Below are positions 10,813 to 29,399 of a DNA stretch of 64,000 nucleotides, piece after piece (within the stretch, counting starts at the first letter, position 1; each line of letters opens with the position of its first letter). This DNA comes from a virus. Taxonomy: Duplodnaviria > Caudoviricetes. Location of the stretch: the IMG/VR virus record IMGVR_UViG_3300025133_000020; one strand, given 5' to 3'. The position numbers were made by a program, and so were the translations under genes. The notes under the pieces were generated by a model. That model was not told the origin of the DNA. It was given only the letters and a program-made list of their open reading frames with translations, and searched no databases.

Positions 10813-11556
10813 TTAGTATATCCCTTCGTCTAAGCCCTTTATTTTCAGTATATCGTATAACCCCTTGAAGCGTTTCATCGCCAGTCTAATATCTTTAGTT
10901 GTTAGACCAGTATGGTTTCTCATGGTCTCAAGGATTGCTATTTTATTGTATTTACTACCCGTACTCACATGGGAGAGAACTTCTTCCCAGTTATCCAAGA
11001 TATCAATCAATGCGTGACCGACCAGACGTTCATTCTCATTTAGTTTCTTCTTCCCAGTATTCTCACCCTCTTCCAATTCAACTTTAATCTCCTGTATCAG
11101 TTTCACCATGAATTTATCCACGGTGAAATCGTCATGGTTCTTAATCTCGTACTGGTAATCATCTTGGGTCTCCAGATATGAACTCACATCATCAAACGAT
11201 GCGTATTTCTTCATATTCTTATCTTCATTCTGGACTTGCCCCAGAACATACCGTTTTATAATCGTACCATAATAAGAATAAGCTTTTTTGTTTCTACCAC
11301 CGTCAAATTTATCTGCCTTCATCATTACGTCTCCCAGCGCATCCATGTGCTGTTGTTCGAATGTTAGACCTTTCCGATAGAGCTTGTACGTTTTAATGAT
11401 GTATTCCACCATTTTGTTCAGAGGCTCTCTGAGATGTGCGTTGTAAATACGAGTCCGTTCCATTTGGTCATCGCATGCAACATATAGTTTAACAGCTTCT
11501 TCTTGTTCAGGTCCGAAATAAGGGTCTTTTTTCCTTTTCCGTCCTCTCTTAGCCAT
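10813..11556 (-). CDS. gp55: Phage sigma factor, T4 gp55-like (late transcription)
   Basis: KFDGGRNKKAYSYYGTIIKRYVLGQVQNEDK resembles the sigma region-2 segment of gp55-type proteins. Confidence 0.7.
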   Translation of the reverse strand: MAKRGRKRKKDPYFGPEQEEAVKLYVACDDQMERTRIYNAHLREPLNKMVEYIIKTYKLYRKGLTFEQQHMDALGDVMMKADKFDGGRNKKAYSYYGTIIKRYVLGQVQNEDKNMKKYASFDDVSSYLETQDDYQYEIKNHDDFTVDKFMVKLIQEIKVELEEGENTGKKKLNENERLVGHALIDILDNWEEVLSHVSTGSKYNKIAILETMRNHTGLTTKDIRLAMKRFKGLYDILKIKGLDEGIY

Positions 11557-12380
11557 TAGTCAGTTGTTTTCTCGTATGTTATCTTTCTATCTTCACTCCA
11601 GAAATATTCTTTCTTAGCTTTCTGCATCCACCAACGCGATTCAACATCATCCATCTCTTTCCTATAGGTATGGAATAACGAACCTTCTCTTAGGTTAACA
11701 TGTTTGTATCCGATTCTTGGTATAACCATCGTCTTAATACCACTGTGAGTCATCCTTAATAGGAACTCATAAATGAAGGTCAATTTGATTGAAGGTTTGA
11801 AGCCACCAAAATCATCGACCACCTCTTTCTTCATCACAATACCATCAGTATTAAAGTTCTGATACCTTAGTAAAGCGTCCGTGTCTAAGATACCCATCTC
11901 ATCAGAGAATTGGTTAGCCCACACAGCTTCGTTGGTACCACCGATATAGTTCATCTTAGTCTTGTCCTTCACATCTATGGCAACATCTGCAATCATAGGC
12001 ATAAAGATACCCACCTCTGGATAAGCCTCAATATACGTTATCGCATTCTTGAACCAGATATTGGCGTATTCATCATCGTATTCCAAGATTGAGAACCATT
12101 CCGTTTCAACCGCTTCAATTCCGAAGTTAACTTGAGTACAGAAATCAGTTTCACCATCATTCTCTAATACCGTAACTGGAAAATCCTTTGTGAATTTCTT
12201 CTTCTTAAGTTCTTTAGCTACATCACTACCCTTTGGTGTTACAATTAGTACCGCATCAGGTTGAGTTTGTTGTCTCACAATACTCTCAAACGCTACATCG
12301 AACATTTCCCTTGTCTCATCAGTCAATTCATGTACTGGTAAGACAACTGTAATATTACTCTTTGTTTTCTCTTTACTCAT
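11556..12380 (-). CDS. Glycosyltransferase family 2
   Basis: ITVVLPVH start; LEYDDEY DxD-like motif. Confidence 0.85.
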   Translation of the reverse strand: MSKEKTKSNITVVLPVHELTDETREMFDVAFESIVRQQTQPDAVLIVTPKGSDVAKELKKKKFTKDFPVTVLENDGETDFCTQVNFGIEAVETEWFSILEYDDEYANIWFKNAITYIEAYPEVGIFMPMIADVAIDVKDKTKMNYIGGTNEAVWANQFSDEMGILDTDALLRYQNFNTDGIVMKKEVVDDFGGFKPSIKLTFIYEFLLRMTHSGIKTMVIPRIGYKHVNLREGSLFHTYRKEMDDVESRWWMQKAKKEYFWSEDRKITYEKTTD

Positions 12381-12391
12381 TTTATTCGTTT

Positions 12392-13549
12392 TTAGTCATT
12401 AGCGGCTTGAGTAGCAGCTTTCTTATTATTTTCTTGTAGAGTAGAAATCTCCCCAATTCTATTCTCCACTAACTTACCATAAACCTCTTCAATCTTAAGT
12501 CTCTGAGCTTCAGGAGTATACACACCTTTACTGGTTTCCATATTTTCCAATATTTCAGAAGGTACGTTATCTTCTAACCACAACTTCAAATACGTTGCAA
12601 TCATCTCTGGCATCGCATGTTGCGTGTTAGTCCAAACACCGTTGTTCTTAATGGTTGGGTTGTTATCAGCATCTCTAGTTTCCATCCACTCTGGGATGAA
12701 TTCTGGCATCTTACCGATTACTGGTGTATCAGATTCGAACGCTTCCAATGGGAAGGTACCGAACCCAGCAGTATCATCAATCCATACCGCTAAACAAGAT
12801 GTACCTAACTCTTCAGCAAACGCTTTACGAGATAAACCTCTCATTTCTCGGAAGGTCACCCACTTATAAATTGGGTATTGCAGATAGAAAGCTTTGGCAA
12901 TCTTAGCCGCTTGTCCGTTATCCCTACATAAGATACTAACCATAGGCTTCTTAGGCTTATCGCTAGGCTTGAAGTATTCTGGAATACTCACAGGTACTAC
13001 CATCGTATTAAGTGATGGGAATAATGATTTAAGGTATTCACCTTGTCTAGCACTTGTAGTGATAGCATCGTTGAATCCAAACTCACTGTTCCACCTTTTA
13101 CCTAATGGTAACAATTCCAATAGGTATGATGGGCTTTGACTGAATACCACCTTCTTACATGGGAATGCTTTTACTTGTTCCATGATGTTGGCAAAAATCT
13201 CTGGGATAAGGATAAAGTCACTTGGCTTAATCTGTAGTTTTTGATTCTGGATTGAGATGTGGCTTAGTTCGCCATACTCTTCACCTAACCAATCAACCAG
13301 ACCCATAGACCCGTCTTCCCCACGTCTTAGTTTATAATCATCATGCTCGTGGATGATGTGAGCTTTATAGCCCAGTTCATTCAACACTTTAACGTGTTCG
13401 TAAATGTTAGCCACACCAGCAGTTGGGTTACCTTTGGTGTCTAGCGTAAAGAAGTAAAAATTACTTTCTTTGTTCTTAAGGTCCTTTAGAATGTCATCTA
13501 ATGATTGCCCTTGTGCGAATTCTTCTTTTGGTTGTTCTTGATTTTCCAT
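12392..13549 (-). CDS. GT-B (GT4-like) glycosyltransferase
   Basis: GFGTFPLEAFESDTPVIG matches the GT4 C-terminal motif region. Confidence 0.75.
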   Translation of the reverse strand: MENQEQPKEEFAQGQSLDDILKDLKNKESNFYFFTLDTKGNPTAGVANIYEHVKVLNELGYKAHIIHEHDDYKLRRGEDGSMGLVDWLGEEYGELSHISIQNQKLQIKPSDFILIPEIFANIMEQVKAFPCKKVVFSQSPSYLLELLPLGKRWNSEFGFNDAITTSARQGEYLKSLFPSLNTMVVPVSIPEYFKPSDKPKKPMVSILCRDNGQAAKIAKAFYLQYPIYKWVTFREMRGLSRKAFAEELGTSCLAVWIDDTAGFGTFPLEAFESDTPVIGKMPEFIPEWMETRDADNNPTIKNNGVWTNTQHAMPEMIATYLKLWLEDNVPSEILENMETSKGVYTPEAQRLKIEEVYGKLVENRIGEISTLQENNKKAATQAAND

Positions 13550-13551
13550 AT

Positions 13552-13872
13552 TTAATCTTCAATATATTTAATTATTCCTAAGTCTTCCAATGTCTCGAAA
13601 GCCAATTTATAGCCGAAATACGTATCATCTAACATAGTTTCTACGTTATTAGCGACCTTTGCCTCAGACAATAATAAGATGTCCAATAACTTGTTAATCA
13701 TTTCGTATTTGGTTCCGTCCAGTGTTGCTGCCCGTTCAAATTCTCTGGTTACCACAACCGTATTTTTATCGTCAGTGGTGGTAGTCTCAGTCTCCGTTAG
13801 TTTACCTTCAATTGGTGGTATCGTTACCAAGGCGTTAACCTTATCAAAATCTACTATGTATCTATATTTCAT
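13552..13872 (-). CDS. Hypothetical protein
   Basis: 106-aa ORF, operon-coupled. Confidence 0.7.
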   Translation of the reverse strand: MKYRYIVDFDKVNALVTIPPIEGKLTETETTTTDDKNTVVVTREFERAATLDGTKYEMINKLLDILLLSEAKVANNVETMLDDTYFGYKLAFETLEDLGIIKYIED

Positions 13873-14462: not shown

Positions 14463-14466
14463 ATAA

Positions 14467-14497
14467 CAAGAATAGGTAGGAAAACACCTAAAGTAAA
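14467..14497 (-). promoter_or_regulatory. Promoter TTTACT-N17-TATTCTTG, near-leaderless
   Basis: 17-nt spacing; only a few nt to ATG. Confidence 0.65.
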
Positions 14498-14498
14498 G

Positions 14499-15395
14499 TT
14501 ACCAAGTAAATTTTTCTGAAAAAAAGTTTCTCACCCCTGAAAATAACCCTTCTTGCTTTATAATTCTAGGTTCAGGTGGTGTAGGTGGAGACCCTTCTGG
14601 AATAACCCTAATTTGAGGTCTAACAGGGGTTTTAACCTCTTTAGGTTTAATATCGGATAGGTCTGGAATCTCTTGCTTAGGGTAGTTATTCAATAACTTA
14701 CCGATAAGTGGGTTTCTTACGATGTCTGAATGTTTGAATTCGTAGAACCCAACTTCATCTAATTTACGGTGTCTGGCGAATAGGTCATATAACCCACTTT
14801 GTCTAACATCATTGTATCTATCTGATTGGTCTAAGTCACCAGAGATAATCATCTTACTGTTATACCCAATCCTACTTAAGATAGTTTTACATTGGCTTGG
14901 TGAAAGGTTTTGAGCCTCTTCGATAATGATAATTGAATTGTCCAAAGTCTTACCCCTGATGAAACCTAACGCTTGTATCCATAGGTAATCATTCTCTTCC
15001 AACTTCTTACGGTTAGCTTTACCCATAATCTTATCCACAATATCCAGAGATGAAGCCAAATATGGTTCCAATTTCTCTCGTATCGTTCCAGGAGTAAACC
15101 CAAGTTTCTCTTCTGCATCCACGGCTGGTTTTGATATGATTATTTTTTTATAGGAGTTACTACTATTCTGTAATAATTCAATAGCTCTGGCGATAGATAC
15201 GTATGACTTTCCAGTTCCAGCAGGTCCTGCCGCTACTATGATTTCCTTATCGGTTATTAATCTTGAGAATTCCTTCTGCGCTAGATTTTTACATTTTAGT
15301 CTGAATCTCGAAGGTAATAGTTTGTTTACTATTGACCCAAATTCGCTTTCCTTATACTCCACATTCCTTGCACTCTTTCCGTTTGTCTTAGCCAT
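14499..15395 (-). CDS. phoH: PhoH-family ATPase
   Basis: Walker A GPAGTGKS, FIRGKTL, EEAQN, SGDLDQSD. Confidence 0.93.
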   Translation of the reverse strand: MAKTNGKSARNVEYKESEFGSIVNKLLPSRFRLKCKNLAQKEFSRLITDKEIIVAAGPAGTGKSYVSIARAIELLQNSSNSYKKIIISKPAVDAEEKLGFTPGTIREKLEPYLASSLDIVDKIMGKANRKKLEENDYLWIQALGFIRGKTLDNSIIIIEEAQNLSPSQCKTILSRIGYNSKMIISGDLDQSDRYNDVRQSGLYDLFARHRKLDEVGFYEFKHSDIVRNPLIGKLLNNYPKQEIPDLSDIKPKEVKTPVRPQIRVIPEGSPPTPPEPRIIKQEGLFSGVRNFFSEKFTW

Positions 15396-15412
15396 TCATT
15401 ATAACTTTTTTC

Positions 15413-15432: not shown

Positions 15433-16365
15433 TTAAAGTCTGACGTTAGGGTACTTTTCATTAAACCAGTCAATGGTCTCCTTCAACCCATCATATAATG
15501 GTGTGAATTCGAAGTCAGGTACTAAACTCATTAATTTACTATTATCCGTAGGTTTTCTAAACTGCCCATCAGGATTCTCTTCCAACCATTTAACCTCACC
15601 CTCAAATTCCATTAACTCTACAATCATCATAACCACATCCTTTATCGACACCTCTTCCGATGTTGATAGGATTATTGGTTCCTCACCTTCATAATTATCC
15701 AATATCCACTCCGTTAGTTTAGCCACATCCTTGTTGTATATGAACTCTCTCAATGGTTTACCTGAACCCCACACCTCAAATGGTGTACCATCACGTTTAG
15801 CTAAGTAACATTTATGTATCAAAGCTGGAACCACATGAGAACTCTCTAAGTTGAAGTTATCATTGATTCCGTATACGTTGGTAGGTATAACACATTTATA
15901 GTTCAACCCGTATTGCTCCCTGTACGCACGTACCTGTACCTCTGCCATTCTCTTAGCGTATGCGTATGCATCGTTGGAGTAATGTGGAGGACCTAAATGA
16001 ATCTTATCCTCAGTAAGTGGGTATTCCACGTCATCTGGGAATATACACGTTGATAGGAATACCACCATGTTCTTAATCCCATGTATCCTTGCCGCTTCTA
16101 TGGTGTTGGTGTTAATCATGATATTATCATAGAAGAATTCACCCTTATGGGTCATATTGTAACCCACACCACCAACCTTGGCAGCACAATGTACTATTCT
16201 ATCTATTGGTTCTTCATCCACCATATTTAAAGCGTAGTTATACACTACAACATCAGCGAATTCCCACCTTCTTAAGTCACATTTGGATGTCACCTTTACA
16301 ATATCGTCACCTTTAAATTGTGACCCAATTAGTCCGTTAGAACCTGTTACTAATAATCTACCCAT
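15433..16365 (-). CDS. fcl: GDP-L-fucose synthase
   Basis: TGSNGLIG, HCAAKVGG, FLSTCIFP, YAYAKR, PTNVYG, SHVVPALIHK, WGSGKPLREF. Confidence 0.95.
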   Translation of the reverse strand: MGRLLVTGSNGLIGSQFKGDDIVKVTSKCDLRRWEFADVVVYNYALNMVDEEPIDRIVHCAAKVGGVGYNMTHKGEFFYDNIMINTNTIEAARIHGIKNMVVFLSTCIFPDDVEYPLTEDKIHLGPPHYSNDAYAYAKRMAEVQVRAYREQYGLNYKCVIPTNVYGINDNFNLESSHVVPALIHKCYLAKRDGTPFEVWGSGKPLREFIYNKDVAKLTEWILDNYEGEEPIILSTSEEVSIKDVVMMIVELMEFEGEVKWLEENPDGQFRKPTDNSKLMSLVPDFEFTPLYDGLKETIDWFNEKYPNVRL

Positions 16366-17332
16366 AATAGTCTATCCAATAATCAATCATCTCATCCAAC
16401 ATACTTTCAAAGTCGTATTCGTGTATCCAACCCAATTTTTCCTTGGCTTTAATAGAATCACCTTTAAGGTGAGTTAATTCTTCTGGTCGTAAGAATTTGG
16501 GGTCACATTCTAAGTAGTCGTTATAATCTAATCCTAATTTTTCGAATACATATACCACAAGGTCTAATACCGAATGGGATATACCCGTAGCACATACAAA
16601 ATCATCTGGCTCATCCTGTTGTAACATTAACCACATGGCTTTAACATAATCCTTAGCGTGTCCCCAATCTCTGGTAGCTTCTAGATTACCTAATGTTAAT
16701 TTGTCAGTCATACCCAGACTAATCTCAACCGCAATCTTCACAACCTTATTGGTTACGAAGTTTATACCACGCCTTGGTGATTCATGGTTGAATAAGATAC
16801 CGTTTGAAACGAACATTCCGTATGAGTTTCTGTAGTTCCTACAGATGTTATATGCGTACACCTTAGCGCACCCGTAAGGGCTTACTGGGTTAAGTGGTGT
16901 TCTTTCCCTCTGGAACCCATCAGCATCTATATTATTACCGAACATCTCACTTGATGAGGCTTGATACATCTTAGCGTCTGGACAAGCTATCCTGATAGCC
17001 TCTAAGAGGTTCAGAACACCTAATCCTGTGGCTTGTGCTGTATAAACTGGCTGGTCGAAGCTTATCCTAACGTGAGACTGCGCAGCCAAATTATAAATCT
17101 CATCTGGTTTGGCTTTGGCTAACACTTTGATTAATGATGCCATATCAGTCATATCACCATATTCCAAGTGTAGCTTATCCATAATGTGGTCAATCCTACT
17201 GGTTTGATTCTCAGATACAGAGTTTCGTTTAACGACTCCCCATACTTGGTATCCCTTCTCCAATAGTAATTCAGCCAGATAACTTCCGTCCTGACCATTT
17301 ATCCCCGTTATTAGTGCTACTTTTTTACTCAT
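16358..17332 (-). CDS. gmd: GDP-mannose 4,6-dehydratase
   Basis: ALITGINGQDGSYLAE, NLAAQSHV, QASSSEMFG, SPYGCAK, FNHESPRRG, RDWGHAKDY. Confidence 0.97.
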   Translation of the reverse strand: MSKKVALITGINGQDGSYLAELLLEKGYQVWGVVKRNSVSENQTSRIDHIMDKLHLEYGDMTDMASLIKVLAKAKPDEIYNLAAQSHVRISFDQPVYTAQATGLGVLNLLEAIRIACPDAKMYQASSSEMFGNNIDADGFQRERTPLNPVSPYGCAKVYAYNICRNYRNSYGMFVSNGILFNHESPRRGINFVTNKVVKIAVEISLGMTDKLTLGNLEATRDWGHAKDYVKAMWLMLQQDEPDDFVCATGISHSVLDLVVYVFEKLGLDYNDYLECDPKFLRPEELTHLKGDSIKAKEKLGWIHEYDFESMLDEMIDYWIDYYG

Positions 17333-17904
17333 TTAATCTTCAAATATGTTAGATAATTTTCCCCACCATTTCTACCCTCTGGGTTAGACCCATCATACGG
17401 TAAAATTTCAAACGATTCTACGTAATCTGGAATTTTACCAGCCTCATCCAACATCGAAATCGTTGGGGTTGCTGGCATACCGAAATGGTGTAGCTTGTCG
17501 GTAGGTACATTATCATCGAACATAACATGTTTAAACCCAACCTTGTATGCCCACTTAAGTCTTTTCTCTTGATTGATGTGGTCATCGAAATAAATTAAAT
17601 CGTTAGCCTTTGGTGAATACTTATCAATATCTCTTTGGATATCATAATTATGGTAACCTATTGACTTATCCCGCCAATTCAAGCCAGCGTAGTTAATTTC
17701 GTATGAATGTAGTTCACTATCAGGGTTCTGTTGTTTAAATAACCATAAACTGTTACCCGTAAAACTTCCAGATTCTATGATTAAACTTGGTTTCAACTTA
17801 TCACAAATCGCATATAGATGTTTTAATTTCCACACACAACTAGCCCCACCATTTACCCTTTTATCTGGTCTACTTTTTATTATTTCCTCTAACGTCTTAC
17901 CCAT
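17329..17904 (-). CDS. Putative SAM-dependent methyltransferase-like protein
   Basis: IIESGSFTGNS motif-I-like, FDD; in glycan cluster. Confidence 0.45.
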   Translation of the reverse strand: MGKTLEEIIKSRPDKRVNGGASCVWKLKHLYAICDKLKPSLIIESGSFTGNSLWLFKQQNPDSELHSYEINYAGLNWRDKSIGYHNYDIQRDIDKYSPKANDLIYFDDHINQEKRLKWAYKVGFKHVMFDDNVPTDKLHHFGMPATPTISMLDEAGKIPDYVESFEILPYDGSNPEGRNGGENYLTYLKIK

Positions 17905-17905
17905 T

Positions 17906-18517
17906 TTAATCTAGCTTTATTTTTTCAAACACTTGAACATTTCTTTTATGGTTCACGTTAATTTCATTTGACGCCTTTCGTATCTTTTCCGTCATTTCTG
18001 GGTTAAATTTAAACCCACGTTTTGGGAATTCACTTCTCCAATCTTCTTGGTTCCTACATGCTATATGCCCATGACCGAATTGACCCATTCTAGCCGCAGA
18101 GAATACGATGAACTTATTCGACTTTTCACATAGGAAGTCGAATATATCATCATGATACTTTCTATCAATGTGTTCCATCACTTCCATACTGAATACCAAA
18201 TCGTATTCCCTGTTATTAATCTTCTCTGGGATATCGTCTTTAGTTATATCGAATTCGAATTGTATACAATCACGTTCTTCACTAAACATCCGACTATCCA
18301 TCTTCTCTGGCTCAATGGCATGTACCGTAGCAGCACCCTTTGATGAGAAGTAGTTAGAGTAGAACCCAAGACCACAACCAAACTCAAGTACGCTGGTAGG
18401 TTTTAGGTTATTCATTATCCACCCACAAATACCATTATTAAATGTATGTGCCCCGTTCATTCTTAAATGTGCATCTTTTGACCAATGCCCACCATCACTT
18501 CCTTTATTCGAATCCAT
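17906..18517 (-). CDS. Class I SAM-dependent methyltransferase
   Basis: VLEFGCGLG, YDLVFSMEVMEHI. Confidence 0.88.
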   Translation of the reverse strand: MDSNKGSDGGHWSKDAHLRMNGAHTFNNGICGWIMNNLKPTSVLEFGCGLGFYSNYFSSKGAATVHAIEPEKMDSRMFSEERDCIQFEFDITKDDIPEKINNREYDLVFSMEVMEHIDRKYHDDIFDFLCEKSNKFIVFSAARMGQFGHGHIACRNQEDWRSEFPKRGFKFNPEMTEKIRKASNEINVNHKRNVQVFEKIKLD

Positions 18518-18522
18518 TTTGT

Positions 18523-19206
18523 TTATATTTTAAAAAACCCTTCATTATTTGCTTTATTGGTTGGTATGTTATTATGTGAGTGCCATATGGTTATAGGACC
18601 ATGACCCTCAGTATGTAGACCACCCCTAAAATTCCAAGATTTGGTTAAGACATACGGATTAATACCTAAACCTTCAACAGCATTGGAAAACCCACATTGG
18701 TCTTGCATCGTGACACATTTATCATTATATTTAGACCACTCTTTAAACAGTTCCCCAGTTAACTCACCTTTTTTGTAGAAGAACATCCCACAATTATAAA
18801 CAGGTTGTTTATCATTGATTGGGGTTATACTATCGTGTGATGTGGTTTTAAAAAATTGTTTTGAGTAATAAGCGGGGGCGTGACATATAGCCAAACCGAA
18901 CTTATCAGCCTTTTCGAAGCCGTAAGTTAAATCCCCATTAACCACGGTATCACTATCTAAATGGAGTGTGATATCGAATGGTGATAATACTAATGATTCC
19001 GTTCTTCTGTGCCACCCGAATCTCTTCTTAGATACGGATTTTATCACTACATCAAATAAAGCTTTCTTTGGGTGGTTGGGTGTTTCTGTTATCCACGCAA
19101 TTTTAATACCCTCATTATGCTTCCTAATAGATGCTACTGACCGTTCCAAATCATTAGGAAACTTGTTACCAAAACTATAATACACTACACCGTAATTATC
19201 TTTCAT
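18523..19206 (-). CDS. GT-A glycosyltransferase (GT8-like)
   Basis: LHLDSDT, YNCGMFFY, QDQCGF. Confidence 0.7.
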   Translation of the reverse strand: MKDNYGVVYYSFGNKFPNDLERSVASIRKHNEGIKIAWITETPNHPKKALFDVVIKSVSKKRFGWHRRTESLVLSPFDITLHLDSDTVVNGDLTYGFEKADKFGLAICHAPAYYSKQFFKTTSHDSITPINDKQPVYNCGMFFYKKGELTGELFKEWSKYNDKCVTMQDQCGFSNAVEGLGINPYVLTKSWNFRGGLHTEGHGPITIWHSHNNIPTNKANNEGFFKI

Positions 19207-19831
19207 ATCGTTTCAAATATTTATCAAAAATAACACCTTTATTAGTTTTCAACCACTCCACATTTTCTAAAATCTCACTATCAGTGAATATTCTAGAATG
19301 CTTAATATTTACATTACCTTTGGTTACGGAGTTACCATATCTGTTTATCGATTTTTGTTTATGCGTAGCCAAATTACTCATGAAGTTAGTTATATCGGAT
19401 TCTGGAACATCTAATTCTAGAAACTCATTACATTTGGTTAATTGACTCTCTAGGTCAGTTAGTAGGTCTTCATAATATATTACCAACTTATCACCCACAA
19501 ACCCTTCACAAAAATCGATAAGTTTAAGATATCCAACCTCAGTATTACTATTGTGGTCATCCTTAATTGTGAATTTACCACCCTTATGCCTAACTAGGAC
19601 ATCATTATAATCTCGTAATAAGAGTATTACCTTATTATTCTTGACGTTCTCGATATCCTTAGTATCGTGACGCTTAATCATGAAGATTTCTTTAGTCCTA
19701 TTTTCTAATAAAATTGATTTGTCGAAATCATTTGAGTTCAGGTATCCGATACTCCTTTTACCAGTTAAAACCTCTAACGCATATCTTAACCAAGTGTTCC
19801 CGCTTCTGGGGTATGATAATAAATAATTCAT
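19196..19831 (-). CDS. PAPS-dependent sulfotransferase
   Basis: 5'-PSB loop SYPRSGNTWLR; LLRD; IYYEDL. Confidence 0.85.
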   Translation of the reverse strand: MNYLLSYPRSGNTWLRYALEVLTGKRSIGYLNSNDFDKSILLENRTKEIFMIKRHDTKDIENVKNNKVILLLRDYNDVLVRHKGGKFTIKDDHNSNTEVGYLKLIDFCEGFVGDKLVIYYEDLLTDLESQLTKCNEFLELDVPESDITNFMSNLATHKQKSINRYGNSVTKGNVNIKHSRIFTDSEILENVEWLKTNKGVIFDKYLKRYER

Positions 19832-20646: not shown

Positions 20647-21410
20647 TCTTCTGGAATCATATCTTTTGTTATTATACCACTCTTTGCAGGTCCGAACCAT
20701 TTCTTAGGCGCTACAACCTTCTTCTCATCTAGTTTGTTTAACCAAGCACCCCACCAAGAGAAACTTGAGTTACCTATGATGTTGTGATAACAAAGGGACA
20801 TTAGATACATGTCAATGTAATCTGGTTCACCTTCCATAAACACAAACTGGTCACCTATGAAGTTTTCCTTACACCACTCAATATCGTCCGAGAAAATCAA
20901 ATACTTATCAGCTTGCACCTTTTTCATTGCAGCCTCATAATATTGCATATTCAATACTGGGTGATGTTCTTGTAGGTTTAAGTAATCACCTCTTCTTACA
21001 TGAACTGAGCATGATACCACGTTTAGGTTGAATAGGTGCTCGTATTTGACGAATAATGAATGTAGGGTTTCATTTGGTAATGCGAAAAGATTTAATAGTT
21101 CACCCCGATGGTGTTTGAAATACTTCTCCGATTGGAAGTAACCCCATAGTAGGATATTGTCCACTTTTGGTAGGTCAGTATAGGCGAAGTTTGGTTCTGT
21201 GTATGTGGTAGTGGGTCTACCAGTAAGTTCTGTCACATCCTTAACCCCACTAAAGATGTTATTTCGGTAGCTAGTAATGTGTCCGTGACCCTGTGCGGCT
21301 CTATTAAAATCAAACCCAGCATCTACCCCTAAGTCCCAAGCCAAGGCTTGAGCAGCAGCAATTTGGAACATGTAATTACCTAAACCACCCTGTAAATACG
21401 TACTTATCAT
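20628..21410 (-). CDS. GT11 alpha-1,2-fucosyltransferase
   Basis: GGLGNYMFQ, HVRRGDY, IFSDD, NSSFSWWGA. Confidence 0.93.
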   Translation of the reverse strand: MISTYLQGGLGNYMFQIAAAQALAWDLGVDAGFDFNRAAQGHGHITSYRNNIFSGVKDVTELTGRPTTTYTEPNFAYTDLPKVDNILLWGYFQSEKYFKHHRGELLNLFALPNETLHSLFVKYEHLFNLNVVSCSVHVRRGDYLNLQEHHPVLNMQYYEAAMKKVQADKYLIFSDDIEWCKENFIGDQFVFMEGEPDYIDMYLMSLCYHNIIGNSSFSWWGAWLNKLDEKKVVAPKKWFGPAKSGIITKDMIPEEWLRID

Positions 21411-21411
21411 T

Positions 21412-22014
21412 TCACTTTAATTGCCAGTTCTCCCACACGAATGGGTAATCATACGTTAGTTTATGGGTCTTTTGTAGTACCTCTCTTATCTTATCCCTAC
21501 GCTCAACACAATTAGGTATGAATCTATGGAATTGGACTTGTATGTTACCTAACTTAGTTTGTAACCCTTTGGTGATAATATCATCTAATAAGTCAAACTC
21601 ACCACCCTCAATATTAATCTTTATCAGGTCGATGAAGTCTATGTCGTTTTCATTGATGACATCAGCTAAACCCCTTAGTTGTATGGTAATAGGAACCTCA
21701 CCTACGAACATAGAAGATGCATCCTTATTCAGGAATATAGTGTCTTCAGCGTTCCTATCGGATAAACCAAACATATGTGGGATGATTTTATCGTTTTCAC
21801 TAAACCTATCCTCTATTTTTTTATGAAACGGTCTTACAGGTTCAAATATGTGAACCGTAGACTCATATTTGTTATAGATTTTGGCGGCAAAATCACCATT
21901 GTAACCACCAACATCAAATACTATTGAGTCAGCGTCTAAGTCGTATAACACTCTATGTGTGGTACCACCTTCGTCCTCAAACCATTTATTTAATATCTCT
22001 CTTGGGTTTCCCAT
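21412..22014 (-). CDS. FkbM-family methyltransferase
   Basis: VFDVGGYNG, FEP, LIKINIEGGE, QVQFH. Confidence 0.9.
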   Translation of the reverse strand: MGNPREILNKWFEDEGGTTHRVLYDLDADSIVFDVGGYNGDFAAKIYNKYESTVHIFEPVRPFHKKIEDRFSENDKIIPHMFGLSDRNAEDTIFLNKDASSMFVGEVPITIQLRGLADVINENDIDFIDLIKINIEGGEFDLLDDIITKGLQTKLGNIQVQFHRFIPNCVERRDKIREVLQKTHKLTYDYPFVWENWQLK

Positions 22015-22739
22015 TATCTAACTAACCTATCATACCTTTTCAAGGTTTTAGCGTATTGTGTGTACTTATGAACCTTTGGCATATGTAACTTATGGTCATT
22101 CAATGGGTTACCATCATTATAGACGTAATTTATTTCGGGTGAGTACAGATAATGTTCTTCACCCGCCATTTCCAGCATTGGGAACATGAACGATAGGTCG
22201 CCAGTCGTCTCCCAATAGTTACCGTCTGGGGTTTTTAAATCCTTACGTTTGATAGCTCTCCATAGGAACATCTTCCACGTTCTTAGGTGGCTAGCAACGA
22301 ATGACTTATTCCTAACATCATTGAAGTCTGATATTGCTGCTGAAAAACCAGCTCTACCATCCTTATATCTAAAGGAACCATTAGTAATCCAAATATCACC
22401 ACTGTTATAATTGTCTATCACTCGTTGGAACACATGTCTATCTGGCAACCAATCATCACCATCCACTTCCACTAAGATATCCTCATCATCAATACCTTCC
22501 ATATCTCTACATATCAGGTCATAATTACCACCTTGGTAGAGCTTTTTCTCGTTCCTAATCAGTATGAATCTATCGTCATCTTCGATGAATTCTTCAGCTA
22601 CGTCAGGCGCACCATCAGTAGATAAATCATCCGTTATATAACATACGAAATTTTCATATGATTGGGACATTATTGAACCTAGGGTTCGCTCTATTATATC
22701 ACTAGAATTGTATAACGTAACTGCTACTACTATTTTCAT
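22014..22739 (-). CDS. Glycosyltransferase family 2
   Basis: DDLSTD, VDGDDWL; start refined to MKIVVAV. Confidence 0.88.
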   Translation of the reverse strand: MKIVVAVTLYNSSDIIERTLGSIMSQSYENFVCYITDDLSTDGAPDVAEEFIEDDDRFILIRNEKKLYQGGNYDLICRDMEGIDDEDILVEVDGDDWLPDRHVFQRVIDNYNSGDIWITNGSFRYKDGRAGFSAAISDFNDVRNKSFVASHLRTWKMFLWRAIKRKDLKTPDGNYWETTGDLSFMFPMLEMAGEEHYLYSPEINYVYNDGNPLNDHKLHMPKVHKYTQYAKTLKRYDRLVR

Positions 22740-23712
22740 CTCTTTGTTCTTTATTTTCATATCGTTCATCTAAATCAGCCATCCTGTATTGTTCCGTAAG
22801 GTCCTCACCATCCGTAACCACAGTAGCCGTCATTTTAATAATGTAATAACCATTGAACTCAACAGTCTTATCATAAGCTAAATTATCGTAAATGTAAAGC
22901 TTATTGTTGTGAACCCCTATGTCGTTATAGGTGGTGAATGATACCTCATCGAAATCGATAACACTGGAAATCCTTGGGTTATCGTCAATCTTCAAAACAT
23001 TCTTAATGAATACATCACTACGCCTATCGTACTCTTTAGGGTATTTACTCACACAGAACTCCAATAACTTAACCTTATGGTCAATACTCCTTACGTTTAG
23101 TTTCTTGGTGTATTCTTCTAACTTGAATTTGGGTGGGTGCGTTCTACCAATCTTGAGCTTGAAGTTTGATTTTATCAAAGAGAAATACTTATCCGATGAT
23201 ATTTCACCCACAACCTTACTATTGGTAACGTCCTTATTGGGGTTACCATCAATACCTTCGTCAAGCTCGTTACCAGACTTATCACTTTCCCCTATTTGAT
23301 TCCCATCAAATGCTTCGTGAGCTTCTTTCGCTCTTGGTCTATTATCTATAACCATTTCCACAGCGAAATCATCGAATGCGTCCAATTGTACCTTTCTAAG
23401 TTCACTGGCTTTATTCACCGATGTGGTCGTATAGGTAATCTTACCATCAGAATCAATCTTATGTACGGTTCTGATATTAGCGCTTGCAGCTAACACTTTA
23501 TACATTCTCCATCGTAAGGTTTGGACTTCTTGCGTTACCCTACCTTGTAGAAGGTCATCCAACATGGTACCTTGATTAATACTTTGGAAATGAGCCATAT
23601 CTTCACCCATATAGCTTCCCTGTTGACCTAAAGATGACTTCTCCGTGTTATATAATGCCAACATCAAGTATGTGGCAATCCGTCTCCCAATATTCTTCAA
23701 CCATGAGAACAT
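22702..23712 (-). CDS. Hypothetical protein
   Basis: 336-aa ORF inside glycan cluster, no family recognised. Confidence 0.7.
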   Translation of the reverse strand: MFSWLKNIGRRIATYLMLALYNTEKSSLGQQGSYMGEDMAHFQSINQGTMLDDLLQGRVTQEVQTLRWRMYKVLAASANIRTVHKIDSDGKITYTTTSVNKASELRKVQLDAFDDFAVEMVIDNRPRAKEAHEAFDGNQIGESDKSGNELDEGIDGNPNKDVTNSKVVGEISSDKYFSLIKSNFKLKIGRTHPPKFKLEEYTKKLNVRSIDHKVKLLEFCVSKYPKEYDRRSDVFIKNVLKIDDNPRISSVIDFDEVSFTTYNDIGVHNNKLYIYDNLAYDKTVEFNGYYIIKMTATVVTDGEDLTEQYRMADLDERYENKEQRDENSSSSYVIQF

Positions 23713-25373
23713 TACCTCAATACATCTTCATACTCTTTCAGGACTTCTACTACTACGTTATCTGCTCTGAATTTATCTACGTCCTCTGGTACCTCATGGA
23801 ATTCCTTACCAATGATATTACCACCAGAATCAACATCATATATCCAACCACCCTTACCACATAACCAACCTTCAATAGTCGTTCTACCTAACAATATACC
23901 AGCAGTCTCATCACATTGTTTCACAATCTTCTCTACGTTTGGTGTTGCTGGATAGTACGTGATATGCTCATTATCCTTCAAAATACCCTCAAGATACGTA
24001 TCACTATTATTACCAACCAATATCAAGTGGTTACCCTCTGACTTGGTGGTCTCAACCAAGTCCTCAATAGCATTGCGCCTCAAGTAATCCATGGTACCAA
24101 CAAATACAACTCTCTTACTATCACTCTTCCTATCAAAATTGTAGTCAGTATTGAAGCGAGTATTGTCAATAGGGTTATACACAACATCAATCTTTTCCTC
24201 TGGAATATTGAAGCTGTTTACCAAATAGTCCTTAATCTCTGGTCTAATGGCTATGTATTTGATTATCCTATCAGATATCACAGGCTTCTCCAAGTCAATA
24301 ACTTCCGAATGAATGGAAGATATCGCTGGTATCTCTGGGTATAGTTCCAATAATCTACTAGCGATTGGTGTATGGTTCAAGTGCATGATATCGAAATCAG
24401 CCACCGCAACCTTGTATAACGTCTTAGGGTTTGATGCTACCATGCTACCATCTTGCGTAGGTAGTTGCCATAGACCATCACCCAATTTGAATGTTGGTGG
24501 TTCATTGATACTGAACAACTTAATACCCAACTTTTTAGCCTTCTGAGCCAATGGTTCTCCAATATTGGATACCACAGTCACGGAGTGCCCTTTCTTAATC
24601 AGGGATTTAGCTAATTCGAACACATAAAGTTCCGAACCAGTATAACCGTTGAAGTTAAGGCACCCGATTAATATTTTCAATCTGGTATGTTTATCAAATA
24701 CCCTATCGTTTTTGATTGGGAAATGTTTGGCGTATCTTTCGGTTACCATCACACGCTTCTCTTCCCACTTATCATCAGTTTGACCTATTGATTGGTGAGT
24801 GATTTTAATGTTGGTGTGAACACCTATTTTAAGCCCTTTCAGGTAATTATCCAAACAGAATGTAACATCGTAGAAGTGGAACCCGTCCACCTTCTTATCG
24901 AACTTCTTCTTTAACCTATCCCTACGGACGGAAAAGAAAACCCCATCGACCAGAACCACCGATTCTAATCGAGTACCAAGGTCATCACTATATTTGGACA
25001 TCCATGTTCTACCTTCGTGCGTGTGTGATACTCGACCATACATTTTACTTGGGTCATCCCACCAACGTCCAGAGTCAGTTATTAGCTTAGTTCCAGCCAC
25101 ACCAATAATACCATACTCTTCATTGGCGTTAAAGTGTTTAATCACTTTTTTACCCCACTGCTTGGTATCGATATTGATATCATCATGTAAGAACGTTATA
25201 ACGTCATTCTTAGCTTCTTTCAAAGCTTTGTTATATAATTCAGTCAGAGAATACTTACCCTTATTTTCATAATGAAGTATCTCTACGTTCTTATTTCCCA
25301 GACCACAGGTCTTTAACAGATGAGTTCTAAACTCGTCTGAAGGTTCTTTACTGGAACATACTATTGTAATCAT
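23712..25373 (-). CDS. Fused GT2-like plus GT4-like glycosyltransferase
   Basis: N-half FLHDD/GVAG/FHFYD; C-half GSELYVFELAKSL and GT-B core. Confidence 0.85.
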   Translation of the reverse strand: MITIVCSSKEPSDEFRTHLLKTCGLGNKNVEILHYENKGKYSLTELYNKALKEAKNDVITFLHDDINIDTKQWGKKVIKHFNANEEYGIIGVAGTKLITDSGRWWDDPSKMYGRVSHTHEGRTWMSKYSDDLGTRLESVVLVDGVFFSVRRDRLKKKFDKKVDGFHFYDVTFCLDNYLKGLKIGVHTNIKITHQSIGQTDDKWEEKRVMVTERYAKHFPIKNDRVFDKHTRLKILIGCLNFNGYTGSELYVFELAKSLIKKGHSVTVVSNIGEPLAQKAKKLGIKLFSINEPPTFKLGDGLWQLPTQDGSMVASNPKTLYKVAVADFDIMHLNHTPIASRLLELYPEIPAISSIHSEVIDLEKPVISDRIIKYIAIRPEIKDYLVNSFNIPEEKIDVVYNPIDNTRFNTDYNFDRKSDSKRVVFVGTMDYLRRNAIEDLVETTKSEGNHLILVGNNSDTYLEGILKDNEHITYYPATPNVEKIVKQCDETAGILLGRTTIEGWLCGKGGWIYDVDSGGNIIGKEFHEVPEDVDKFRADNVVVEVLKEYEDVLR

Positions 25374-25380
25374 ATTTCTT

Positions 25381-26104: not shown

Positions 26105-26111
26105 AGCGTTC

Positions 26112-26810
26112 TTATTTAACTTTATTATTATTCTTATACTCTACTAATTTAGGTATTATTAAGTCTAAGTAAAGTTTAAATTCTAATTCATTCATCATAC
26201 CTTTAAACGAATTTATAGCGTATGACGCTAATACCACATTATTTTTAGTGTACCCTAACATGGGGTCTAATCGCTCAACACTTATACTATCAAATTGGTG
26301 GCATCCTTCGTTATGTTTAATCTCAACATTAGTATAATAACATTTATGATTTTGTTTAAGTAAAGTCTCGTATAAAAAGGTTTTAGGTAGGTTAAATTCT
26401 AACCCCATTCTTTCCGACTTCCTTTTCAAGCCTGACGTTTTATTCCTGAGATAAACTTCTAAGCTAGTTTTTAATAATTTGGATTTCTTTTTGTACCCAC
26501 GTTTCACCGAATCATAATTACTAAAACACCCTTTACAACATTTTTGGTAGCCATCGAAGGTGCTTCTATTTTTAGAGAATTCCGACAACTCTTTGCGTTG
26601 TTTACACTTAAAACATTTCTTTTTACCGTCTATAATTGATTTACATATATGTTTCCGTTTGGCTTCCCTAAATCGTTTGTTAGCTTTCACCCCACAATCA
26701 GAACAAACACATACCACTGGTTTTTTACTACCGTATGTTAAACCACTAACAACATAACCAAATTCTTCAGTTGTTTCCTTTTCTTGTATTATCCATTGCC
26801 CATAACTCAT
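26112..26810 (-). mobile_element. Free-standing HNH/His-Cys-type endonuclease gene
   Basis: CxxC pairs plus CYYT...SISVERLDPMLGYTKNNVVLASYAINSFKG; own promoter. Confidence 0.7.
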
Positions 26811-26826
26811 ATCAAATCATTTGTAG

Positions 26827-26857
26827 TAAATATAGGTATAAAGCGAAAAAGGTTAAA
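26827..26857 (-). promoter_or_regulatory. Promoter TTTAAC-N17-TATATTTA
   Basis: Directly upstream of the endonuclease. Confidence 0.6.
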
Positions 26858-26869
26858 CCATTTTAATAA

Positions 26870-27490
26870 CTATCGGTGACCTGTTGAACCGAAGCCACCG
26901 TCACCTCTATCGGTTTCGGTATTTATTTCATCGACACGATTCAATTTTATTATATTGGATGCTGTCACCGTAGCAACAACTCCTTGCGCAATTCTATCAC
27001 CATTGTTGATAAGGAACGCTTCCCTACCATGATTGATAAGGATTACCTTTAATTCACCTCTATAATCAGCGTCTATCGTACCAGGAGTATTAAGTACGGT
27101 TACACCTTTTTTAGCGGCTAATCCACTTCTAGGTCTTACTTGAATTTCAAACCCAGTCGGGATTTCGAAAAACAAACCTGTAGGTATTACTTTGAACTCA
27201 CCTACTTCTATAATTTCTTCACCCACTAAGTTAGCACGTAGGTCAAAGCCAGAAGACCCAGCAGTTTCATACTGTGGGTCTGTGTTATCTGATTCGTTCT
27301 TAAATGGTACTGAAATCTTTTGTATCTCAGTTACCTGTGGTGCGTTGATTTGGTACCACTTTTCGAAATCGAATGGTTCTGGTTCCGATTCAACACCATC
27401 TTTAACTAAATCTTTAAAGTAGTCTGGAATGGAGGCATCCCCCATTCCGAACCACTTCTTAAAATAGTCTTTGTTTTCTTTATCAGGCAT
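26870..27490 (-). CDS. dut: Trimeric dUTPase with N-terminal extension
   Basis: GSSGFDL, VRPRSGL, GTIDADYRGE, RIAQG, RGDGGFGSTG. Confidence 0.96.
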   Translation of the reverse strand: MPDKENKDYFKKWFGMGDASIPDYFKDLVKDGVESEPEPFDFEKWYQINAPQVTEIQKISVPFKNESDNTDPQYETAGSSGFDLRANLVGEEIIEVGEFKVIPTGLFFEIPTGFEIQVRPRSGLAAKKGVTVLNTPGTIDADYRGELKVILINHGREAFLINNGDRIAQGVVATVTASNIIKLNRVDEINTETDRGDGGFGSTGHR

Positions 27491-28058
27491 ACTCCAATAA
27501 TCTTTTCTTCTCTTCCATTATTGCTAGGTCACTGGCTTGGCTCAGTATGATACCTAACGTGTTAGTATGGAACCTTGCTTGTTTATCATCGTCCGTTTTA
27601 TCGTAGTTGATAATAGCTTGGTATTCATCGTCCGTAAACCGAACACCGTTATCCACAGCATACTTTATTGAACGCTCACCCACGTGTAGCGCCACAAGGT
27701 CGTTAGCGAACTCATACATTTGCCCTAACTTATCTTTATGCCATTGTGATGTGTTCTCAAGGAACATAAACGTCTTACCAATCTGGAATAAGCATGCTAC
27801 CTTTACAACAGACGCTAATGGTTGTTGCATATCTTCTGGTAGTATTTCATTTAGCTTACAAGCGTAATACGTAGTTCTAAGCGTGTGGTCTATTAGACCA
27901 CCTTTGAACGCATTGTAAGAATCCAGTTTTGTTGTAGCGGGTGCAGCTATGATGTCGGCACCTAAGAAGTTCATTAACTCTTCGGTCATGAACTCATACT
28001 TTTCACCAGTATTAAAATACTTGGTGGCATTAGATTTGATTTTCTCTTCTGTTAACAT
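27483..28058 (-). CDS. YhaM-like HD-fold protein, HD replaced by FQ
   Basis: GGLIDHTL, ACLFQIGK, ERS, QAI..D. Confidence 0.65.
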   Translation of the reverse strand: MLTEEKIKSNATKYFNTGEKYEFMTEELMNFLGADIIAAPATTKLDSYNAFKGGLIDHTLRTTYYACKLNEILPEDMQQPLASVVKVACLFQIGKTFMFLENTSQWHKDKLGQMYEFANDLVALHVGERSIKYAVDNGVRFTDDEYQAIINYDKTDDDKQARFHTNTLGIILSQASDLAIMEEKKRLLEYA

Positions 28059-28088
28059 GTTGTTTGTTTTGTTTGTTTGTTATTATAA

Positions 28089-28119
28089 CAAATATACGCA
28101 TTTTATTTGGGAAAATCAA
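28089..28119 (-). promoter_or_regulatory. Promoter TTGATT-N17-TATATTTG
   Basis: Exact TAnnTTTG element. Confidence 0.75.
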
Positions 28120-28124
28120 CCCTA

Positions 28125-29399
28125 TTATGCAGGTTCTTTAATTGCTTCTACTACTTCTGTTAACTTAGTCATGTATAATTCTCGCCTTGTATCTGAGGTA
28201 CTATCAGTGCTGTATGTATCCTTAACAGTCTCATATAGATTATTAGCCAATAGCTCAACCTTTTCTGGGTTCTGAATTAGGAACTTGATGTGTTGGTACC
28301 ATTGTTTGTGGTTCTTGTTCGTATCCACCAATAAAGCGTTAGCCTCATCATTATACCCACCACCATATTCTCTAGCATTCGTTAGGTCAATAGTGTAAGG
28401 ACCGAAATCCTGAGCAATAATAGCCTTCTTATGGAAACCAGATTCAATCACCTTCAATTGGCTCTTAACCTTATTGAACATATTCGTGTACAACGGAGCT
28501 AATGAAATATCAAATAGGTTATAGTTGGATGCGTAGCTTGTGATAGGCTTCGTCCAAACCCTTCTATACGGTTCATTATCAACATTTTCATAGACACTAT
28601 TAACCTTAAACTTATGAAGGAAATCCTTATATTCTGGACTCACAATCTTGAAGTTATCCGTGAATATCTTTTCATACTCATACCATACACTCTCTTGCGG
28701 TTGTATAGGTCTCTGAGATTGCTGACCAGTTTTCTCATCGATTGTAGTCACATTACCTCTAAGGTCGTAACCACATAGCACGAATTGTACTTTGTCCAAT
28801 AACCCGTCAGATTTTACCTTTTGTACTACACCTTTCAATAATTTAAGGTCTTCCAAGTGGGAGCTACCACCCAACCATCCGATTCTTAGTCGTTTGGATT
28901 CAATTGGTTTTGGTGTGTATTGTTTTTCGTTGGGGTCGATAGCATTCGGGATAACATAGATGTTATCATTCATCCTATCCATCTCTTTAGCGAAGATGTC
29001 GGTAGTTGTGATAATATTTCTAGCGTGTTTAAGGTTGCTGGCAATCTTCTTATCCAACTTAGACTGAATTATCAGTTTATGTGCTGGATGATGTGTTCCT
29101 GGTGCCCAGTGGTCATCTACATCCATGAAACTAAGAATATTAAGCTCATCCAACCGTTCCAGTAATTTCTCCATCCCGTCATAATCACCTAACGTTCTAT
29201 GGTAATGAACTAAGTCAAACCCTTTTAACCATTCGTCTGATTTAAGGTCTGGTTCGTATTCAATTTCTACGTGAAAATCATCTGGATATTTTTTTTCCAG
29301 TGAAATATGGGGTTTAGTAGAGCGAAAATATGAGACGCCAGTGCGGTCAGATGGTACTACTAAAACTTTAATTTTTCTATTTAAGGGGTTTACTATCAT
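28125..29399 (-). CDS. GT-B glycosyltransferase
   Basis: DVDDHW, IPNAID, IGWLGGSSHLEDL, DISLAPL, KSQLKVIESG. Confidence 0.85.
   Translation of the reverse strand: MIVNPLNRKIKVLVVPSDRTGVSYFRSTKPHISLEKKYPDDFHVEIEYEPDLKSDEWLKGFDLVHYHRTLGDYDGMEKLLERLDELNILSFMDVDDHWAPGTHHPAHKLIIQSKLDKKIASNLKHARNIITTTDIFAKEMDRMNDNIYVIPNAIDPNEKQYTPKPIESKRLRIGWLGGSSHLEDLKLLKGVVQKVKSDGLLDKVQFVLCGYDLRGNVTTIDEKTGQQSQRPIQPQESVWYEYEKIFTDNFKIVSPEYKDFLHKFKVNSVYENVDNEPYRRVWTKPITSYASNYNLFDISLAPLYTNMFNKVKSQLKVIESGFHKKAIIAQDFGPYTIDLTNAREYGGGYNDEANALLVDTNKNHKQWYQHIKFLIQNPEKVELLANNLYETVKDTYSTDSTSDTRRELYMTKLTEVVEAIKEPA

Follow-up and report, generated by a model that had tools for sequence, protein, structure and literature searches.

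The window analysed here is a 64,000-nucleotide stretch of viral DNA (IMG/VR record IMGVR_UViG_3300025133_000020) on a phage contig of 212,812 bp that originates from marine metagenomes. On its minus strand, between positions 11556 and 29399, lies an island of at least seven clear glycosyltransferase (GT) genes, with eight catalytic domains, and one weak GT8-like gene; gmd, fcl, one sulfotransferase gene and two methyltransferase genes belong to the same island. In the window and in all relatives examined, the island is situated between the capsid gene and the divergently transcribed fibre genes. It is a lineage trait, the core of which is common to hundreds of uncultured relatives, while its middle part is swapped among them. 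The genes of the window were annotated by Pfam, NCBIfam and PHROG scans, and the relatives were examined at two depths, with six loci read in detail and 84 in bulk. The features of the island and its borders are as follows (aa, amino acids; E, expectation value).

28125-29399 (-): GT-B glycosyltransferase "GT424", 424 aa, core; PHROG 7162 glycosyltransferase, 7e-37, and a weak Glyco_transf_4 match
27483-28058 (-): conserved 191-aa frame protein, function not assigned; present in 47 of 84 relatives
26870-27490 (-): dUTPase, a conserved gene of the backbone located within the frame; scores 173 bits with the NCBIfam dUTP diphosphatase equivalog (cut-off 103)
23712-25373 (-): bifunctional core glycosyltransferase, a fusion of Glyco_tranf_2_5 and Glyco_transf_4; Pfam 9e-29 and 2e-13
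22702-23712 (-): conserved 336-aa protein, not a GT; present in 38 of 84 relatives
15433-22769 (-): variable cassette of this phage; Pfam and NCBIfam
22014-22769 (-): GT2 of the cassette; Pfam, NCBIfam and PHROG scans
21412-22014 (-): FkbM methyltransferase; profile scans
20628-21410 (-): GT11; Pfam
19828-20700 (-): GT10; Pfam
19196-19831 (-): sulfotransferase of the cassette; profile scans
18523-19206 (-): GT8-like gene, merely GT-A-like; sub-threshold, E 0.0056
17906-18517 (-): class-I (S-adenosylmethionine, SAM) methyltransferase; profile scans
16358-17332 (-): gmd; 409.6 bits against an equivalog cut-off of 415
15433-16365 (-): fcl; best family GDP-L-fucose synthase, below the cut-off of that family
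14499-15395 (-): PhoH, backbone gene bounding the cassette; Pfam 2e-60
12392-13549 (-): core GT-B, 385 aa; atlas neighbours include Glycos_transf_1 clusters (a lead)
11556-12380 (-): core GT2 glycosyltransferase; Pfam Glycos_transf_2, 1.5e-7
29377-30120 (-): NUMOD3 homing endonuclease, directly upstream of GT424; Pfam NUMOD3, in 4 of 84 relatives
26112-26810 (-): HNH/endonuclease VII-type mobile endonuclease; PHROG 1035, 2e-21, in 0 of 84 relatives
10813-11556 (-): sigma-factor-like protein, 247 aa, not a glycan gene; atlas matches to viral "RNA polymerase sigma factor family" clusters (0.98-0.99), some with Sigma70_r2

An earlier note on this DNA, which a model had made from the letters and a list of open reading frames (ORFs), had described most of this content. 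Its calls of gmd, fcl and the sulfotransferase were confirmed by the profile scans, with fcl falling below its own cut-off. Its count of eight GT genes is retained as at least seven clear genes and eight domains: the GT8-like gene stays below threshold, and 22702-23712 is not a GT, the candidate GT-B assignment having been rejected after AlphaFold2 modelling (pLDDT 71); the model gave no Foldseek match. In the latter protein, residues 182-304 have a weak likeness to tail-tube, neck or Dit folds (Z 5-6), and a profile search of PDB sequences with the family gave nothing useful. The 385-aa GT-B carries a GT4-type FGTFPLEAIE motif that is invariant in three homologues. Two of the two or three methyltransferases claimed, FkbM and class-I, were recovered; the third, 17329-17904, was not confirmed, since Pfam up to E 1 gave nothing. 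The note had also pointed to dut and nucleotide-fold genes interleaved with the island. Here dut is a bona fide dUTPase, probably outside the glycan pathway, and the others are PhoH and the HNH/endonuclease VII-type and NUMOD3 endonucleases. The glycan interval should not be started at 10813, as had been done, because the first ORF is sigma-factor-like instead; that this protein is a sigma factor is a lead, for which Pfam up to E 1 gave nothing. The 191-aa frame protein (27483-28058) had no Pfam, PHROG or PDB match, including in a profile search of PDB sequences.

The window also contains a gp23-like capsid protein (PHROG 138, 6e-51), a sheath homologue, long fibre genes and a family-B polymerase. 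The capsid protein is 33-43% identical to those of Flavobacterium phage immuto, Microcystis phage Mel-JY01 and uncultured huge phages. The window is part of a large, only distantly T4-like myovirus, and the capsid protein together with the sheath homologue agrees with the earlier assignment to the myoviruses.

A conserved frame around a variable cassette

How widely is this island distributed? More than 2,600 homologues of the bifunctional fusion GT were found, and IMG/VR contributes at least 537 of these; the best 120 share about 55% identity with it, have a length of about 549 aa and lie on contigs of up to 368 kb. The relatives have a gene order in common: the divergent fibre genes, five small genes, GT424, the 191-aa protein, the dUTPase, the fusion GT, the cassette, PhoH, two small genes, the 385-aa GT-B and the GT2. 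Homologues of GT424 were found in 73 of the 84 relatives (median identity 60%) and of the dUTPase in 76. The 385-aa GT-B was found in 21 of the 84 loci, many of which stop short of its position, and the core GT2 (11556-12380) has homologues in L001, L002 and 17 loci. Megablast gave no DNA-level similarity of the island to cultured phages, tblastn found no match to the fusion GT or the 385-aa GT-B in the phage collection, and GT424 had just a 32% match, in a 735-kb uncultured phage.

Within this frame, the cassette between the fusion GT and PhoH varies greatly. In the 27 relatives whose locus reaches PhoH, it measures 1.6-9.4 kb and holds 2-12 genes, which form 91 protein clusters, 63 of them singletons. 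A Pfam tally of the cluster representatives gave mostly sugar-pathway families, and the cassette families include GT2, short-chain dehydrogenase/reductase (SDR) epimerases/dehydratases, FkbM, DegT aminotransferases, FdtA, cytidylyltransferases, Polysacc_synt_2 and Epimerase_2. The cassette of the present phage consists of fcl, gmd, a 191-aa protein without assignment, the SAM methyltransferase, the GT-A-like gene, the sulfotransferase, GT10, GT11, the FkbM methyltransferase and GT2. Genes for fucosylation are common, with GT10 in 38, GT11 in 34 and gmd in 24 of the 84 loci. In close relatives, in which the fusion GT is 82-83% identical, the run GT2-GT11-GT10 is kept and the content beyond it differs; one of their cassettes contains SIS_2, CTP_transf_3, an aminotransferase and a faint MptE-like match. 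The cassette of L003 carries rhamnose genes, and that of L001 carries DegT and a GNAT acetyltransferase. Depending on the relative, the cassette is inserted on either side of the gene for the 336-aa protein.

In five of the 73 relatives with GT424 (L006, L012, L025, L034 and L038) its homologue is 704-800 aa long. In L006 (5775-8177), a Cys-led insertion of about 370 aa (CMTPDTEIL), with a weak LAGLIDADG match, splits the homologue as an intein would. Inteins are unusual in glycosyltransferases. The long, intein-type homologues, together with the NUMOD3 endonuclease upstream of GT424 in the present phage, fit a strongly conserved gene. PhoH is also found near the capsid gene in immuto, a phage that lacks the island, which makes PhoH and dut part of the backbone around which the GT genes have gathered.

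The gmd-fcl pair has its nearest cellular matches in contigs of Saprospiraceae/Aureispira metagenome-assembled genomes (L097-L106), with identities of 70-75% and 58-63%, respectively, and in the same gene order, without the other island genes. This fits a Bacteroidota host and the capture of gmd-fcl from a bacterial glycan locus, and it hints that the gene donor, or the host itself, belonged to the Saprospiraceae-type Bacteroidota. The island recurs in another marine sample (run X2), letter-identical over several pieces save a recombinant-looking gmd segment. Here, one contig differs from positions 15898-17324 of the window by 71 differences and two small indels, and its gmd looks like a recombinant allele.

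Fibre genes and the [S/T]-G-x-T motif

On the other side of the island, the plus strand carries the following features.

32933-48994 (+): virion and fibre genes with [S/T]-G-x-T, candidate acceptors; PHROG 1645 virion structural protein, beta-roll repeats
43718-44608 (+): GT9-fold glycosyltransferase, 296 aa, a separate second module among the fibre genes; AlphaFold2 pLDDT 81.5, pTM 0.84
44598-45416 (+): second sulfotransferase, overlapping the GT9-fold gene; Pfam Sulfotransfer_3, 1.3e-17

Shuffling of eleven putative virion proteins of the window predicts 23.4 copies of the motif [S/T]-G-x-T, whereas the proteins contain 127, a roughly 5-fold excess (z 21.6). In the same proteins, neither a Ser-ending variant (0.83x) nor the reversed motif (1.14x) is enriched; calculated for single proteins, the z value of the motif ranges from 2.5 to 10 among virion proteins and stays near 0 among enzymes. 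The same tendency is seen in the relatives (L001-L085), in which 100 fibre-side ORFs contain 1,039 copies against 221 expected; 400 island-side ORFs contain 37 against 64 expected, and are thus depleted (z -2.9). The fibres of immuto, which are equally rich in Ser, Thr and Gly, gave a ratio of 1.6x. Such a depletion on the island side would be expected if proteins that are not targets avoided a sequon. The 137-aa product of 49040-49453 (+) has six copies of [S/T]-G-x-T within residues 17-56, with SGDTVT present three times.

The GT9-fold gene and its sulfotransferase sit between beta-roll fibre genes, and the pair is conserved in the relatives, in which the homologues of the fibre genes carry Peptidase_S74. 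Homologues of the GT9-fold protein number more than 2,499, with identities of about 68% at best. In Foldseek searches, its model matched the GT9 structure 3tov (2.7e-9), WaaF (1psw) and TibC (4rb4/4rap, 7.5e-8, TMq 0.67-0.69); the fit to TibC, a protein heptosyltransferase, is about as good as that to WaaC/WaaF, the heptosyltransferases of lipopolysaccharide (LPS). In two relatives examined, the pair adjoins a gene for adenosine 5'-phosphosulfate (APS) kinase (L095:9717-10636; L096:6918-7379). Those phages therefore encode a step in the synthesis of 3'-phosphoadenosine-5'-phosphosulfate (PAPS), and the relatives perhaps also supply ADP-heptose; no APS kinase was seen in the window. In L095, a cytidylyltransferase-like gene is also found beside the pair.

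A recurrent element is present at the DNA level as well. Nine of the 15 exact copies of TATATTTA are intergenic and lie 15-47 nucleotides upstream of a start codon on the same strand, and copies precede fibre genes, sub-operons of the island and a helicase gene (e.g., at 7304, 26834, 32895, 37395, 43695, 45434 and 57929/57944). The polymerase gene at 49923 has a TTGACA/TATAAT-type (sigma-70-like) promoter instead. TATATTTA resembles the Bacteroidota -7 box, TAnnTTTG, and the sigma-like protein encoded at 10813-11556 may read this phage-specific sequence. The T4 late-promoter consensus TATAAATA was also considered and was rejected, as it is not clearly enriched (17 copies against 10.6 expected; 3 of 100 shuffles reach 17) and no copy lies upstream of any island gene on the right strand.

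The acceptor of the glycan

What might this machinery glycosylate? The earlier note had argued from the lack of membrane enzymes, and the lack itself is borne out. When hydrophobic segments were defined as 19 residues with a Kyte-Doolittle mean of at least 1.6, the island proteins of the window contained none, except one in gmd, and in the 84 relatives 0 of 1,455 island ORFs had two or more. Whole-genome searches were made in relatives (two complete and three partial genomes), standing in for the genome of the window phage itself. These likewise gave no match to Bac_transf, Glycos_transf_4 (WecA/MraY type) or Polysacc_synt (Wzx), in agreement with the reported lack of flippase and priming enzymes; as controls, the models for priming transferases and Wzx gave matches in 10-13 of 14 genomes. 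A self-contained Wzx/Wzy or Gtr system is ruled out. Neither the integral-membrane enzymes of a serotype-converting cassette (GtrABC/Wzy/O-acetyltransferase) nor the priming phosphoglycosyl transferase and Wzx of a phage-encoded, undecaprenyl-phosphate-dependent O-antigen or capsular polysaccharide pathway were found in these searches. The argument built on this lack is nevertheless weaker than stated, because lipooligosaccharide (LOS)-type extension of the lipid A-core can likewise do without Wzx, Wzy and a priming transferase. It uses just peripheral GTs and the host MsbA, and the missing membrane enzymes are therefore compatible with remodelling of the host envelope.

From the gene content, the solubility of the enzymes, the frame-and-cassette architecture and the motif statistics, we infer an acceptor, an order of steps and a glycan structure. 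In the best reading, to which we assign a probability of roughly 0.45, the phage would glycosylate its own virion proteins in the cytoplasm. The island would be the main locus of a lineage-wide, phage-encoded and purely cytoplasmic glycosylation system, in which the conserved soluble GTs (GT424, the GT2_5+GT4 fusion, the 385-aa GT-B and the GT2) and the GT9-fold/sulfotransferase pair would lay down a common inner glycan, and the replaceable cassette would supply activated sugars and outer decorations. In the present phage, the latter would comprise GDP-fucose made by gmd and fcl, alpha-1,2- and alpha-1,3/4-type fucosyltransferases, extra GT-A enzymes, O-methylation and PAPS-dependent sulfation. 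The acceptors would most likely be the fibres, the sheath insertion and small surface proteins, modified before assembly, with attachment possibly at the recurrent [S/T]-G-x-T motif. A virion target is suggested because the island lies between the capsid and fibre genes, because the GT9-fold/sulfotransferase pair lies among the fibre genes, because the motif is lineage-wide and because TATATTTA precedes fibre genes as well as sub-operons of the island. Of what the earlier note proposed, a soluble, cytoplasmic pathway that makes GDP-fucose and has fucosyl-, sulfo- and methyl-transferases is supported; the evidence for placement of the glycan on virions is circumstantial.

Several considerations weigh against a virion acceptor. 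The case for a virion glycan is drawn from gene and protein sequences. The fibres of the relatives are homologous, so that their motif counts are not independent events, and the motif could be a structural turn peculiar to the fibre folds of this lineage rather than a sequon. The capsid protein is not rich in Ser and Thr over its last 80 residues, in contrast to the C-termini of glycosylated mycobacteriophage capsids. Because TATATTTA is also found before the helicase gene, late timing is not proven. LOS-type synthesis on the lipid A-core also uses soluble or peripheral GTs, GT9 is classically an LPS-core family, and the literature on similar islands favours modification of the host O-chain (PMC7029224).

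These last points lead to the main rival, remodelling of the host envelope, which we consider rather unlikely. Here, the soluble GTs would extend the host lipid A-core (LOS-type) or an undecaprenyl-linked intermediate at the cytoplasmic face of the inner membrane, the product would be exported by the host MsbA/Lpt or the host Wzx/Wzy, and the outcome would be that superinfection is blocked or that progeny do not re-adsorb to debris. This is the published view of the GT-rich "host recognition clusters" beside the fibre genes of pelagimyophages and cyanomyophages (PMC7029224). It agrees with the classical role of GT9 in the LPS inner core and with WaaC/WaaF being among the best fold matches, GT10, GT11, gmd and fcl are typical O-antigen or LOS genes, the gmd-fcl pair seems to have been taken from a bacterial glycan locus, and a conserved acceptor such as the lipid A-core would likewise explain a conserved GT core. 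However, it leaves unexplained why [S/T]-G-x-T is enriched in virion proteins and depleted in enzymes, and no priming transferase, flippase or other membrane protein was found in the 84 islands or in the genomes of the relatives. Surface-modifying morons are usually accessory, whereas the GTs here belong to the core of the lineage, with some GT424 homologues apparently containing inteins; and the upstream motif of the island is that of the fibre genes, not the sigma-70-like promoter of the polymerase gene.

A different cytoplasmic acceptor appears improbable to us. It might be a free or carrier-bound sulfated oligo- or polysaccharide, a glycolipid, or non-virion proteins of the phage or the host during infection. 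Nothing in the island identifies the acceptor, the architecture of the bifunctional GT2_5+GT4 enzyme is such that it could act as a polymerase, and the methyl and sulfate groups would fit, being known chain terminators or decorations of soluble glycans. Yet the island has no linked gene for export or for a carrier, and gene position and motif statistics point to virion proteins. We regard as highly improbable that the acceptor is DNA, with the GTs building an oligosaccharide on a hydroxylated pyrimidine, as in T4, RB69/DLP3 and metagenomic 5-hydroxymethylcytosine (5hmC)-glycan clusters. The phage is T4-like, the dUTPase and a conserved protein of no assigned function lie in the frame, and mono- to tri-saccharides are known to be placed on phage DNA by LPS-like GTs, sometimes with phage genes for nucleoside diphosphate (NDP)-sugars and beside structural genes (bioRxiv 10.1101/2023.12.21.572611; PMC13326640). 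However, eight to ten GT domains with fucosylation, methylation and sulfation exceed any described DNA glycan, and the enzymes that would create the hydroxyl group were not found in the relatives. Their complete genomes have a single ThyA-family locus each, and its product, where intact, is about 55% identical to bacterial ThyA and keeps the PCH motif, D169 and N177. Because D169 and N177 change in the synthases of 5-hydroxy-dCMP (5hodCMP) and in dCMP-hydroxymethyl synthases, where N177D or D169N is diagnostic (PMC13326640), the ThyA of the relatives is, by these residues, neither. A Tet/JBP enzyme had no match in the relatives, although the Tet_JBP model matched no control genome either, and the dut-like gene, which scores above the equivalog cut-off for dUTP diphosphatase (173 versus 103 bits), does not qualify as a dCTPase. 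The alternative of DNA modification, which the earlier note had kept in view, is thereby weakened.

The single thyA is broken into matched pieces in two relatives (G002:C1:230121-232307 and G004:C1:41393-43651). The pieces in G004 lie inside one 761-aa open frame and those in G002 are separated by stops, which suggests invasion of thyA by an intein or an endonuclease.

With glycosylation of the virion as the preferred reading, we tentatively propose that, in an abundant group of jumbo phages from aquatic habitats, a conserved GT core attaches glycans bearing sulfate, fucose and methyl groups to the fibres, the sheath and further virion proteins while these are in the cytoplasm, with [S/T]-G-x-T as the sequon. 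Through the swappable cassettes, each phage would have a "glycotype" of its own, the viral equivalent of an O-antigen serotype. If virions are indeed glycosylated, this would be the first sequon-directed, multi-enzyme protein glycosylation system in tailed phages and far more elaborate than the mycobacteriophage case. Cassette diversity would then add a new dimension to the variation of phages, with relevance to host range, particle stability, grazing and adsorption at sea in a lineage that is widespread in aquatic samples, and the usual assumption that the GT islands of marine T4-like phages modify the host surface would be called into question. If host LPS is remodelled instead, the island would be a large but conventional auxiliary module. 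It is also conceivable, as a speculation to which we attach very little weight, that sulfated, fucose-rich coats mimic the algal polysaccharides that Bacteroidota hosts bind and import.

Comparison with known systems

GT-rich hypervariable regions beside fibre genes have been described in pelagimyophages and cyanomyophages, where they were read as serving modification of the host O-chain (PMC7029224), and GT islands of this kind in aquatic T4-like phages are thus already known. The present island falls in the same class, as it has a T4-like backbone, GT genes beside the fibres and a non-syntenic cassette, though its flanking GTs are conserved. Like the islands of aquatic T4-like myophages (PMC7029224, PMC3037559), it places many GT and sugar-nucleotide genes, without synteny, in the structural region beside the fibres, with a function that is inferred. 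Unlike them, it has a GT set conserved across hundreds of relatives that frames the variable part, it encodes sulfotransferases (and APS kinase in relatives), and its phage is only distantly T4-like, the capsid protein being 33-43% identical to those of cultured phages. The island may also be compared with that of the "moraphages", Bacteroidota jumbo phages from aquatic habitats with genomes of at least 200 kb, whose core genes include four GT orthogroups and which also carry PhoH (PMC12619734). The 212,812-bp contig, its marine origin, PhoH and at least four conserved GT genes agree with that group, which was compared by description only, as do the similar genome size, the T4-like structural genes and the Bacteroidota affinity. 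The moraphage paper lists the GTs; the island architecture, cassette turnover, sulfation module and motif are not in it.

Outside these phages, the chlorovirus PBCV-1 and giant viruses also assemble glycans in the cytoplasm, independently of membrane machinery (PMC9614988, PMC7019647). They resemble the present phage in having soluble viral GTs, methyltransferases and their own GDP-mannose dehydratase and GDP-fucose synthase; in the window, the corresponding set consists of gmd, fcl, GT10 and GT11, without transmembrane segments. They differ in being eukaryotic viruses with unrelated capsids and enzymes, and their glycans have been shown chemically, whereas that of the present phage is predicted from genes. 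In mycobacteriophages, virion proteins are reported to be O-glycosylated (Freeman et al. 2023, as cited in PMC12619734) by one or two phage GTs encoded near structural genes, on Ser/Thr-rich C-terminal tails of capsid and tail-tube proteins. Here, there are 8-10 GT domains and sugar-nucleotide synthesis, and the capsid protein has no Ser/Thr-rich C-terminal extension of the mycobacteriophage type.

The GT9-fold enzyme (43718-44608) has the GT9-like GT-B fold of the bacterial autotransporter heptosyltransferases (BAHT) TibC and Aah and matches TibC structures (PDB 4rb4/4rap) at 15-18% identity. It is encoded among beta-roll fibre genes, and TibC beside a beta-helical adhesin; it is shorter than TibC (296 aa versus about 400 aa), and WaaC/WaaF match it about equally. 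With the DNA glycan clusters, namely the alpha- and beta-gt genes of T4, the arabinosyl-5-hydroxycytosine (5hoC) system of RB69/DLP3 (PMC13326640) and the 5hmC glycans (10.1101/2023.12.21.572611), the island has in common a T4-like background, LPS-like GTs and NDP-sugar genes. It differs from them in that no base-hydroxylating or -hydroxymethylating enzyme was found in the relatives and that its enzyme set is far more complex. In comparison with all these systems, what is new in this study is the scale and the frame-and-cassette architecture of the island, its conserved sulfation module, the long intein-type insertions in homologues of a core GT, the finding of relatives' genomes without membrane and DNA-hydroxylation enzymes, and a quantified, direction-specific motif in the virion proteins.

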